20,091 nucleotides of DNA, from positions 1 to 20,091 of the forward strand of contig CAVSOU010000019.1 in the NCBI GenBank assembly GCA_963729625.1, written 5' to 3'. The notes beneath the pieces were generated by a model. It did no database searches, had not been told where the DNA came from, and worked only from the letters and a program-made list of their open reading frames with translations. Within the stretch, counting starts at the first letter, position 1. The number at the start of each line of letters is the position of its first letter. This stretch comes from an uncultured bacterium (GTDB lineage: Bacteria; Chloroflexota; UBA5177; JANWHV01). Positions 1,734-4,577 of this stretch are shown in pieces. The position numbers and the translations under genes are program-made.

Positions 1734-2036
1734 ACGGAGGTAGTATGCGGGCGGTGCGCGGGGCTGGATGTGCACTTGCGACTCGTTCTCCTGAAATGAG
1801 GGTGCAACACGTTCAAGGATGGAGGCTAGATGTCAGCACCTCGCCAGCTACTTACCCGACTTTGGAGGTAGGCGGGGAGGGGCAACCCTCCTCGCCTGGC
1901 CAGCAAGCAGAGCGTCGCAGCCTGCGCGCTGGCCGGCGCCTCCACAGGCGAGGCCAGGCAGGACGTGCGCACGATCGGCACGATGACGCGGGACCTGGAG
2001 GCGCTGAGCCGTTGGCTGGTGGCAGCGGGGGTTGAG
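1734..2036 (+). pseudogene. IS110-family transposase N-terminal (DEDD RuvC-like) remnant, interrupted
   Basis: 1734-1775 reads (ACG)EVVCGRCAGLDVH and 1905-2036 continues in frame KQSVAACALAGASTGEARQDVRTIGTMTRDLEALSRWLVAAGVE. Joined, this fits the IS110 N-terminal pattern MEV...RCAGLDVHK..V.AC...VRTFGTMT.DL.AL..WL...GV. The start codon is ACG and similarity stops before the MESTG motif. Confidence 0.8.
1776..1904 (+). mobile_element. 129-bp group II intron-like mini element (5' end plus domain VI; no domain V, no RT)
   Basis: Precise insertion between the His and Lys codons with no target duplication. Begins TTGCGACTCGTT. Ends with the stem GGT-AGGCGGGGAGGG-GCAA-CCCTCCTCGCCT-[G bulge]-GCC then AGC. 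In-frame TGA at 1797-1799. Confidence 0.65.
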
Positions 2037-2223: not shown

Positions 2224-2261
2224 CATGGTCACGAGTATTTACATTGGGAAGGGCACAAAAG

Positions 2262-3497
2262 ATGGGGCATCACAGCGAGGATGGAGGTGGCAAGCCATAT
2301 CACGCTCTGAGCGTTCAAGACGCCGCGGCATACGCTGCGGCATGCGCGCCACTGCGCGACATCGTGCCCGCCGGCGGCGAGTTGGAGGCCCGGGAGGTTG
2401 GCGACGGCAATCTGAACCAAGTCTTCCTTGTCTCCAGCGCTTCCGGCGCCTCCGTAGTGATCAAGCAGGCCATTCCGTATCTCCGACTGGTGGGAGAGAC
2501 GTGGCCACTCACGATGGAGCGAAACACCTTTGAACGCCACGCTTATGCACTCTACACCCAGTGGGTTCCCGATCTAGTACCCCGAGTCTACCACGAAGAC
2601 GCTAAGTTGGCGCTGTTTGTGATGGAGGACTTATCCCGGTTGCGCATTGTGCGTGGTGCGCTTGTCGAAGGCCACCTGTACACAGACCTTGCTTCAGCAA
2701 TCGCTCGCTTCTGCGCCGAGACGGCGCTGCGTACGAGTGACTTCTATGTCGCGGGCATGGAGAAGAAGGGGCTTGTAGGCCAGTTCATCAATCCCGAACT
2801 GTGCAAGATAACGGAAGACCTTGTGCTGACGGATCCGTTCTACAACGCGCCCTCAAACAGCTTTGAATCCGAATTGCAGCCGGCCATCGGTAATCTGTGG
2901 GCCGACCAGCGCACGTGCGATGGCGTTGCCAGGCTGCGCTACGCGTTCATGACCCGCGCCGAGGCACTGCTCCATGGGGACCTGCATACCGGCAGCGTGA
3001 TGGGGAGCGACGCCGAGATCAAGATCCTTGATCCCGAATTCTGCTTCTTTGGACCCATGGGCTTCGACATTGGCATGTTTATCGCCAACTTGTTCATCAG
3101 TGCCGTGGCGCATCAAGCGCTAGCGGGAACTGCCTGTGACTTCGCTGAGACGATGCTGGCCGCCGCCTCACAGACCTGGCTGGACTTCAGGTGTCGATCG
3201 ATGTCGCTCCTTCAAGCTGCGCCGGTCTGGCGACTCTCGACTAGTGCACAGCATGAATTCATGCATCTAGTGCTGCGAGATGCGGTAGGCTTCGCCGGCA
3301 CCGAGATGATCCGGCGTACGATTGGACTCGCGCATGTGGCCGACCTCGACAGGATCACGCCGGCGGAAGTGCGCCTTCGCGCGAAGACGATGACAATTGC
3401 CATCGGCCGTGCCCTCGTCAGCATGCATCAGCAGGTCGATTGCTTTGATGAGGTGCTCACCATGGTTCGCAACTTGAGCAGAGTGACCTTGGCATGA
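2262..3497 (+). CDS. mtnK: S-methyl-5-thioribose kinase
   Basis: Motifs EVGDGNLNQVF, IKQAIPYLRLVGETWPL, MEDLS, FINPELCKITEDLV.TDP, LLHGDLHTGS, DPEF.FFGPMGFDIG and RRTIGLAHVAD. ATG 2262 follows GGGAAGGG (the ORF track starts at TTG 2244). Confidence 0.95.
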   Translation: MGHHSEDGGGKPYHALSVQDAAAYAAACAPLRDIVPAGGELEAREVGDGNLNQVFLVSSASGASVVIKQAIPYLRLVGETWPLTMERNTFERHAYALYTQWVPDLVPRVYHEDAKLALFVMEDLSRLRIVRGALVEGHLYTDLASAIARFCAETALRTSDFYVAGMEKKGLVGQFINPELCKITEDLVLTDPFYNAPSNSFESELQPAIGNLWADQRTCDGVARLRYAFMTRAEALLHGDLHTGSVMGSDAEIKILDPEFCFFGPMGFDIGMFIANLFISAVAHQALAGTACDFAETMLAAASQTWLDFRCRSMSLLQAAPVWRLSTSAQHEFMHLVLRDAVGFAGTEMIRRTIGLAHVADLDRITPAEVRLRAKTMTIAIGRALVSMHQQVDCFDEVLTMVRNLSRVTLA

Positions 3498-4577
3498 GCG
3501 CCAATGTTGCGCTCGAATCCGTCCTGCGGACGATCGCATGGCAGCAGGATCACCTGGTCATCCTGGATCAAACCGCGCTGCCGGGTGAACGGAGTGAAAT
3601 ACCGCTCTATACTATGCAGCATACTTTGACGGCGATCCAGTCTCTGCAAGTGCGAGGAGCGCCGCTGATAGGCGTGACTGCTGCATTCGGGCTCTACCTC
3701 GGAATGCGCGAGGCGCTGGCGAAAGGTGGCGCCGATCCCGCAGTGGAACTATCCCGGTGTGTCGAGTACTTGACGAGCGCCCGGCCCACGGCCGTCAATC
3801 TGGCCTGGACCCTGCGGCAAGCGACTACGCATGTTGCGCCGTTCCTTCCTGCAGGCACCGCGGCTCTCCTCGCAGCGCTGCTGTCGTTTGCGCAGGACGC
3901 CCAGACCCAGGATGTGGCTTCGAACCGGGCTATCGGCAAGCACGCACTGCCGCTACTACAAGATTGCACCTCGATCCTCAGGCACTGCAATGCCGGCTGG
4001 CTGGCGACGGCCGGCTATGGCGCGGCGCTTTCTGCTGCTGCGGGAACAGAACCGCCGGGTGCCGCACGTGTTCGTAGACGAGACACGACCCGTGTTGTAT
4101 GGATCGCGCCTGACCGCGTGGGAGCTGGGGCAGGCAGGAATCCCGGCAACCCTGACCTGTGACAACATGGCTGCGGCCGTGATGGCCGACAGCCGGGTCG
4201 ATGCGGTGATCGTCGGCTGCGATCGCATGGCGGCGAACGGGGACTTCGCCAATAAGATTGGCACACGGAGCGTGGCAATCCTGGCCAAGGAGTTCCATAT
4301 TCCATTCTATGTCGCCGCGCCGACCTCGTCGATCGACTTCAGCTTGCCCAACGGCACGGGCATTCCGATTGAAGTGCGCTCGGCTACTGAAGTGCGCAAC
4401 ATTGGCGGCACAGCGATCGCGCCGGACATTGACGTGTTCAATCCGGCATTCGACGTGACGCCGCATCGACACGTTTCTGTTTCGGCGGTGGTGAGCGAGC
4501 GCGGCACAGCTATGCCGTCGTTTGAGCTGGCCCTGCGCGCGTTCCGCGAAGCCGGGAGCGCGGGAACGCTGGGTTAA
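3494..4577 (+). CDS. mtnA: S-methyl-5-thioribose-1-phosphate isomerase, frameshifted near 4030
   Basis: The N-terminal ORF has LDQT.LP, VRGAPLIG, ARPTAVNL and HCNAGWLAT. The second frame has DETRP, GSRLTAWEL, G.DR.AANGD.ANKIGT, PFYVAAP and NPAFDVTP. ATGA overlap with the mtnK stop. Confidence 0.9.

Follow-up and report, generated by a model that had tools for sequence, protein, structure and literature searches.

The locus described here raises the question of how an IS110-type transposase gene came to be interrupted, exactly between two codons of a conserved motif, by 129 nucleotides in which no long open reading frame was found. The window, that is, the whole stretch of DNA analyzed (20,091 bases), is contig C19 of a 21-contig, 5.4-Mb assembly with a completeness of 87%; a small share of it is also contained in a peat metagenome (public DNA run). 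A preliminary description had proposed that the interrupting segment is an internally deleted group II intron. Our results make it highly probable that the insert is what remains of a group II intron, which has kept both of its ends and lost approximately 95% of its interior. The features discussed below are the following:

1734–1775, plus strand: upstream piece of an IS110 transposase relic (TEVVCGRCAGLDVH), recognized by alignment to the protein encoded on contig C16 (MQVVHARRCGIDVHKK)
1776–1904, plus strand (IS110 sense): highly probable group II intron remnant, internally deleted, 129 nt, with no ORF, no domain V and three stops in the host frame
1776–1832, plus strand: intron 5′ terminus, where domain I begins, with position 1 being T in place of G, recognized by alignment to the introns L082 and L052
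1833–1866, plus strand: middle stretch holding the deletion junction(s), possibly a degraded part of domain I or a fragment of the RT gene
1867–1904, plus strand: domain VI-like hairpin and 3′ tail, with a fold shared with 13/13 real domain VI sequences and a hairpin that is rare in the genome
1905–2036, plus strand: downstream piece of the IS110 transposase relic (KQSVAAC...WLVAAGVE, 44 codons), recognized by IS110 similarity

On the plus strand, positions 1752–1775 read CGG TGC GCG GGG CTG GAT GTG CAC (RCAGLDVH), and the sequence from position 1905 on reads AAG CAG AGC GTC GCA GCC TGC (KQSVAAC). When 1701–1775 were joined to 1905–2060, the product was stop-free (...EVVCGRCAGLDVHKQSVAACALAG...), and the excision of 1776–1904 thus gives an open ...TEVVCGRCAGLDVHKQSVAACALAGASTGEARQDVRTIGTMTRDLEALSRWLVAAGVE, while translation across the unexcised insert meets three in-frame stops in the host frame. 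The earlier claims that removal of the insert restores the frame and that the insert carries an in-frame stop are therefore both correct.

The 52 amino acids encoded by the joined flanks (1752–1775 plus 1905–2036) match two IS110-type genes of the same genome, C16:6184-6333 (51% over 51 aa, E 1e-8) and C11:915539-915637 (57.6% over 33 aa), and both matches run across the junction. The IS110 gene on C16 is intact: it encodes a protein of 412 aa with PF01548 (DEDD_Tnp_IS110) from residue 9, plus PF02371. The joined flanks, which carry the G[IL]DVxK motif, align with residues 8–58 of this protein, so that the comparison of the flanks with IS110 transposases gave a match to a protein carrying both domains. 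The N-terminus of the C16 protein (MQVVHARRCGIDVHKK) is aligned with the relic sequence TEVVCGRCAGLDVHK, which places the insert two codons after the first Asp of the domain, the position given for it in the preliminary description. Judging from this alignment, the start codon of the relic appears to be ACG in place of ATG. Pfam gave no match with the 52-aa translation of 1905–2060 alone, and the locus 1734–2036 was not reported in a PF01548 search of the genome. The IS110 similarity ends at about position 2036, far short of the approximately 400 aa of such a gene and before the Transposase_20 domain is reached; the host gene is therefore a stump of approximately 58 codons. A 238-nt contig of the peat metagenome matches 1751–1775 and 1980–2018, and the 75 letters between the two matches equal the length of 1905–1979, which indicates, independently of the searches within the genome, that this metagenome contains a related sequence without the 129 nt.

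The insert occupies exactly 1776–1904 (GGG CTG GAT GTG CAC / TTGCGACTCGTT ... CCTGGCCAGC / AAG CAG AGC), and every observed detail of the 129-nt interruption at IS110 GLDVH/K reported earlier was confirmed. Its boundaries can be shifted by one base at most (a C precedes both junctions), and its orientation is that of the sense strand of the host IS110 gene. We searched for terminal inverted repeats and for a target duplication around the insert and found neither, in agreement with the initial report that no target duplication is present; the 8- and 10-nt repeats within 281 nt are of a size which, by our estimate, is expected by chance.

These observations bear on the possibility that the insert is not derived from an intron, i.e. 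that it is a MITE, a palindromic element of the IS200/IS605 type or filler DNA picked up in the course of a rearrangement, the intron-like ends being coincidental. The absence of terminal repeats, of a target duplication and of multiple copies distinguishes the element from MITEs and palindrome-associated elements, and the genome contains no other copy and no source segment of it. Two points argue for such an origin: Rfam finds nothing in the insert, and its surroundings have undergone rearrangement, since IS110 is truncated and a duplicated 146-bp piece of a gene lies next to it.

In a BLAST search of 400 Chloroflexota genomes, the 129 nt gave a 24-nt match (nt 2–25, 96%) in genome G090. The match is preceded by G, which makes the sequence GTGCGAC, and lies approximately 45 nt upstream of a fragment of a group II-type RT (SYGFRPGRSCHDA..., LDADISKCF). 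A protein search with this RT fragment yielded matches in 57 of 401 genomes, among them the unpublished genomes G343 and G018, on neither of which any claim rests. When the first 50 nt of the element were aligned to 29 RT loci fetched from these searches, the best match was L052 (genome G224), a full-length intron (GTGCGAACCGTTCTTCCGAAATGAGCGAAAGCTCAAGGATGGA) with a 586-aa open frame and RF00029 at its 3′ end, which aligns from its first base onward with nt 1–48 of the element. Of 200 shuffled versions of the query, 1 reached an equally good score at some point of the 168 kb examined. L052 was found through its RT, independently of the sequence of the element.

A 25-mer pattern, built from the element, the relic in G090 and L052, with G or T allowed at position 1, matched 18 metagenome loci, all of which (18/18) begin with GTGCGA. 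For those 25 nt the metagenome matches are circular, because the pattern is derived in part from the element. Outside this circularity, every match is an intron 5′ terminus, L052 had been reached via its RT, and the block TCAAGGATGG, which lies outside the pattern, keeps its register in the majority of these loci. Fourteen of the 18 loci were scanned with Rfam (four with <500 nt downstream were left out), and of the 9 whose downstream sequence extends over 2350 nt or more, 8 contain an RF00029 domain V-VI match, the end of which is located 2321–2438 nt from the 5′ end. The closest relative is L082, a 2379-nt metagenome intron with a 598-aa ORF containing RVT_N, RVT_1 and GIIM. When the whole of L082 was compared with the 5.4-Mb genome by BLAST, the best match was the element itself (nt 2–54 = 1777–1832, 82.8%, E 4e-5). 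Judged by these alignments, the first ~57 nt of the insert evidently share their ancestry with the 5′ termini of full-length introns that encode an RT. The domain I homology is limited to this stretch, and the rest of the domain, including the exon-binding sites, is absent. UUGCG, which the preliminary description lists beside GUGYG as a start of group II introns, is not the normal start in this lineage, as G is the first base in 18/18 of the metagenome relatives.

The 5′ exons of the 18 metagenome loci fall into three groups, none of which resembles the IS110 site. Fourteen of the 18 have the same 5′ exon, aactggtgggtgatg, from which a few of them differ by a single base. At two loci, L087 (436–585) and L088, a domain V-VI match belonging to another intron lies upstream of the intron studied, and 20 nt separate its end from the 5′ end of the latter. 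Another intron or a TnpB-type gene, or the DNA beside one of these, may be the homing site of the metagenome introns.

The opposite end of the insert folds into a hairpin (1867–1901) in which a 3-bp base (GGT/GCC) is followed by a 12-bp stem capped by a GCAA loop (1882–1885), with G1898, the 7th base from the end, bulged out; the 3′ tail that follows is AGC. The GNRA-capped stem with one bulge 7 nt from the 3′ end, noticed on first inspection of the locus, was thus confirmed. For comparison we used 13 introns (11 from relatives or metagenomes and 2 from the same genome), from each of which domain VI and the preceding 3′ strand of domain V were folded singly, under the constraint that the first 13 nt remain unpaired. 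Every one of these 13 real domain VI sequences has a base helix of 2–5 bp, an upper stem of roughly 10–13 bp (with an additional bulge in L052) and a tetraloop, as well as a bulge in the 3′ strand, which consists of a single A in 12 cases and of CA in one and is located 7–9 nt from the end of the Rfam match. The tail comprises 3 nt in 11 of the 13 introns (range 2–6). The last 54 nt of the element gave the same fold as 13/13 of these sequences, and the predicted structure of the 3′ end is clearly that of domain VI. MAFFT and RNAalifold, applied to the domain VI sequences, produced a poor consensus of 4 pairs.

We also scanned both strands of the genome for hairpins in which a GNRA loop caps 10 or more contiguous pairs, with a 1-nt bulge in the 3′ strand and 3 or more pairs beyond it. 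Only eight were found in the 5.4 Mb, i.e. two copies of the element (see below), one true domain VI (C16:15831) and five others. From this count of 8 sites, simple arithmetic puts the chance of such a hairpin lying a few bases before an arbitrary boundary at about 1e-6, and the rarity of the structure in the genome therefore indicates that its presence at the 3′ end is more than chance. The hairpin also resembles a stretch inside the RT gene of L082 (25 of ~37 nt, counted by hand), a match that BLAST did not give. Twenty loci with weak BLAST matches to the hairpin region contained no intron in an Rfam scan (one of them is 6S RNA), and we treated these matches as chance similarities of GC-rich sequence.

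A coincidental origin of the intron-like ends is favored by the fact that GC-rich hairpins are common, 120 of the same layout being present in the genome if any tetraloop is allowed. However, the 57 nt at the 5′ end match intron 5′ termini in register from base 1–2, and the hairpin lies in the exact register of domain VI relative to the 3′ end of the insert. We therefore judge an origin other than from an intron to be very unlikely, though of the alternatives weighed here it is the least so.

The preliminary description also held that domain V is missing. An Rfam scan of positions 1400–2400 at E≤10, which included RF00029 and the domain V-only families, revealed no intron family and no group II model match, in line with that claim. 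The same scan returned just four chance-level matches (eukaryotic miRNA and lncRNA families and tfoR), while the same domain V models found 7 sites elsewhere in the genome. Three further positions are altered in comparison with the relatives. The start of the element, UUGCG, retains 4 of the 5 bases of the GUGYG consensus, with U1 in place of the G of 18/18 metagenome relatives; the bulged base is G1898, whereas A is present in the bulge of 13/13 real domain VI sequences; and the element ends with GC, whereas 10 of the 13 introns compared end with AY, if the ends of the Rfam matches are taken as the intron ends. The G bulge and the GC end recorded earlier are thus real departures from the relatives, and the proposed inability to self-splice is supported by the absent domain V together with U1, G1898 and GC. 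Some caution is needed with single-base features of the insert, because the assembly contains many 1-nt indels and the neighboring genes are frameshifted. An intron with the boundaries 5′-UUGCG..GU-3′ has been described (PMC7923331), and U1 alone would therefore be compatible with function. The combination of changes, however, makes function very unlikely, and on its sequence the element should be regarded as dead, with no present role in splicing, mobility or coding.

The origin of the middle stretch was approached in several ways. In a collinear global alignment of the element to domain I of L082, 3 of 1000 shuffles scored as well. In local tests of nt 57–92 against domain I or the RT gene, the matches were not better than those of shuffled sequences, and a jump-alignment to seven full-length introns was noisy and did not place the deletion junction. 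A junction shared with the G090 relic, in which the 5′ end is joined to the RT codons 'WEARF', was considered and rejected, the match being not significant beyond nt 56.

Is the element one of a family, or a single relic? A second copy, 100% identical over 129 nt, is located at C18:23986-24114. It lies inside a region shared by two contigs: C19:1-6781 aligns in the same orientation to the final 6.8 kb of C18 (22207–28983), with 98.15% identity, 62 mismatches and 46 gap openings. The shared 6.8 kb may be an unmerged overlap of contig ends, the product of two strains, or a large repeat at the contig ends. Whether overlap or repeat, the copies on C18 and C19 represent the same insertion event. 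Only 2 differences between the contigs were found within 1400–2000, and since the surrounding 600 nt are almost unchanged, the 100% identity of the element carries no signal.

The genome and contig regions just described also bear on the possibility that the element is an artefact of the assembly or a chimera generated by a misjoin. Many small indels, the unmerged 6.8-kb overlap of contig ends and the frameshifted genes nearby are consistent with such an error. On the other hand, the identical insert occurs in the identical place in two separately assembled contigs, and its boundaries fall, with single-base precision, on a codon boundary of IS110 and on intron termini, a fit which a misjoin would not give. 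This is the least probable of all the explanations considered. Two neighboring genes of the window are split, namely an IF-2B family gene (3494–4577; profile 1–118 in one frame and 119–278 in another) and a ROK family gene (466–1214; profile 2–98 and 109–197 over two frames). Together with the 46 small gaps between C18 and C19, these split frames point to pseudogenes or else to indel errors in the assembly. A 146-bp piece from the 3′ part of an APH-fold kinase gene (2244–3497) is duplicated (2078–2223 versus 3150–3295, ~84% identity), and the duplicated piece lies just after the IS110 stump and just before the kinase gene begins, which points to an IS-linked rearrangement. The kinase is probably a methylthioribose kinase, because the IF-2B-family gene that follows is MtnA-like.

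Searches with the 129 nt detected no copy in the genome beyond those on C18 and C19, no further copy in 60 relatives (which were also searched with 1400–2060) and no other copy of the element in the 400 Chloroflexota genomes. A 24-mer scan of a collection of genome contigs found the G090 relic only, and no mini form occurs among the 17 metagenome loci in which >200 nt follow the 5′ end. A pattern consisting of the codons for G-x-D-V-H followed by KTGCGA had 5 matches in the 400 genomes outside the genome studied, none of them an IS110/intron junction: all 5 are inside other reading frames, and a reversed control pattern gave 1 match. A parent intron was not found at the IS110 site or elsewhere in the 87%-complete assembly. 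These searches for copies and for the parent covered samples and incomplete genomes. The search for other copies or full-length introns at GTGCAC/AAG brought up full-length relatives, none of them at the IS110 site, and no independent copies. Of the two alternatives offered in the preliminary description, the decayed relic is upheld by the single locus and the stump of the host gene, and the family of minimal introns, of which no independent copy was found, is not. We favor the view that the element is a lone relic, a 'mini-intron family' being without support in the genomes and metagenomes searched.

A related possibility is that the insert is a working, non-autonomous mini-intron, which is excised or mobilized in trans, with other introns providing the domain V RNA and the maturase. 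Its size and layout match those of group III introns as described in PMC4424553, other domain V-VI elements are present in the genome, the strand carrying the insert folds better than 200/200 shuffles (z −2.79), and the boundary 5′-UUGCG is on record for an intron (PMC7923331). Against these points stand the occurrence at one locus, with 0 other copies in the 60 and the 400 Chloroflexota genomes and 0/17 metagenome loci in the mini form, and the nature of the host, a dead stump of ~58 codons in which splicing would rescue nothing. Moreover, all three splice-critical positions differ from those of the relatives, the contig that carries the sole RVT_1 gene of the assembly has no domain V-VI match, and, according to the account in PMC4424553, ORF-less introns are rare in bacteria and their non-mobile derivatives seem not to persist. 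We consider a working mini-intron hardly likely, a little less so than an origin other than from an intron.

Intron-derived sequences are present elsewhere in the genome. Seven domain V-VI matches were identified (C11:681812, C8:1027457, C16:15791, C4:77470, C16:2215, C20:49793 and C10:709261), four of them above the Rfam cut-off, together with RT/maturase scraps similar to L082. The only RVT_1 match is on C17, where there is no domain V-VI match, and Rfam families for domains I-IV had no match at the intron loci of this genome. The regions C8:1027176-1027551 and C11:681432-681906 share an element of 376–475 nt that ends in domain V-VI; its copy on C8 is preceded by GTGCGAAT. The domain V-VI elements of this genome may be ORF-less or truncated introns. 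One locus, L015 (C4:77470-77547, minus strand), is the 3′ end of an intron, with a maturase scrap and a domain V-VI, and ends 1–2 nt before the ATG of a gene, the first 240 nt of which are repeated at C4:49256-49496 (91%). We attempted to locate the 5′ exon of this intron through the repeated 3′ exon, which gave no result, since the repeat begins at the ATG of the gene.

The relic in G090 (L020/L042, G090:C61 ~4100-4420, minus strand) is located within an RHS/YD-repeat gene. L082 carries TGGGAGGCAAGGT in domain I (nt 41–53) and TGGGAGGCGAGGT in its RT gene (nt 994–1006), while the relic contains a single copy of this 13-nt repeat (TGGGAGGCRAGGT; TGGGAGGCGAGGT), preceded by domain I and followed by RT codons, the ~950 nt between the two repeats having been lost. 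On this comparison the G090 relic reads as a clear case of repeat-mediated internal deletion, which indicates that such deletions do happen and illustrates one route by which an intron can lose its interior.

Taken together, the 5′ homology to L082 and L052 and the fold shared with 13/13 domain VI sequences bear out the claim that the element is an internally deleted intron keeping both termini, and we hold with considerable confidence that the 129 nt are the fossil of a full-length, RT-encoding group II intron which was internally deleted and mutated. In the sequence of events that we infer, a full-length intron of ~2.4 kb, encoding an RT, would have retrohomed in the sense orientation into IS110, between the His and Lys of GLDVHK, without a target duplication. 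At least one internal deletion would then have removed ~2.25 kb, in which the catalytic domain V, domains II-IV together with the RT/maturase gene and the greater part of domain I were lost. Only ~57 nt at the 5′ end, domain VI with the 3′ end and a short stretch between the two would have remained. Later point changes would have affected positions needed for splicing (G1 to U, the branch-point A to G and the 3′ AY to GC), and the host IS110 gene would have decayed to ~58 codons. The order of these steps and the mechanism of the deletion are the inferred parts of the scheme.

The bacterial group II introns described in PMC4181065 tend to decay by fragmentation, with internally deleted copies known among them, and other mobile elements are reported as frequent homing targets of these introns (PMC4181065; PMC1802570). 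Examples are the RmInt1 remnant FRE652 and a copy in S. meliloti AK83 with an internal deletion of nt 1520–1844 (Toro et al. 2014, PMC4181065). Like the fragmented introns of that study, the element is an inactive decay product of an RT-encoding intron in or near mobile DNA, with no splicing or mobility left. It differs in that the usual route described in PMC4181065 is the loss of the 3′ terminus, whereas here both termini are kept and ~95% of the interior is gone; retention of both ends is thus a less common outcome of decay. In the AK83 copy the internal deletion is ~325 nt (PMC4181065), whereas the present element is reduced to 129 nt in all.

With the full-length introns L082 and L052 the element shares its 5′ terminal sequence (nt 2–54, 82.8%), the layout of domain VI with a bulge 7–8 nt from the 3′ end, and the mode of insertion, in sense orientation and without duplication. 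Unlike them, it is devoid of most of domain I, of domains II-V and of the ORF, and has U1, a G bulge and a GC end. Its site, IS110 GLDVH/K, is also unlike the three types of 5′ exon found at the 18 metagenome loci of this lineage.

The closest resemblance in size is to the group III introns of the Euglena gracilis chloroplast, described as 90–120 nt long and sometimes containing only domain I and domain VI motifs (PMC4424553); together with degenerate group II introns they number >150 (Copertino and Hallick 1993, cited in PMC4424553). The element is similar in length (129 nt versus 90–120 nt) and likewise has domain I and VI motifs only, with no domain V. According to the same source, however, the Euglena introns are many, reside in essential genes and are spliced, whereas the element is present as a single copy in a dead gene and has mutated splice positions. 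That it is a bacterial counterpart of these introns, still excised or reverse-spliced with domain V and a maturase provided in trans, and belonging to a lineage that homes to the GLDVH/K codons of IS110, strikes us as more doubtful still than an isolated mini-intron.

The importance of the locus beyond annotation is little. It provides a clean example of the decay of a bacterial group II intron, in which the ends are exact to the base although neither the catalytic core nor the RT gene is left, and it indicates that a minimal layout like that of the Euglena group III introns can arise in bacteria by simple deletion, although in this case the product is dead. Fossils of ~100 nt escape Rfam and ORF-based searches, and surveys of bacterial introns and of their past target sites consequently miss them.
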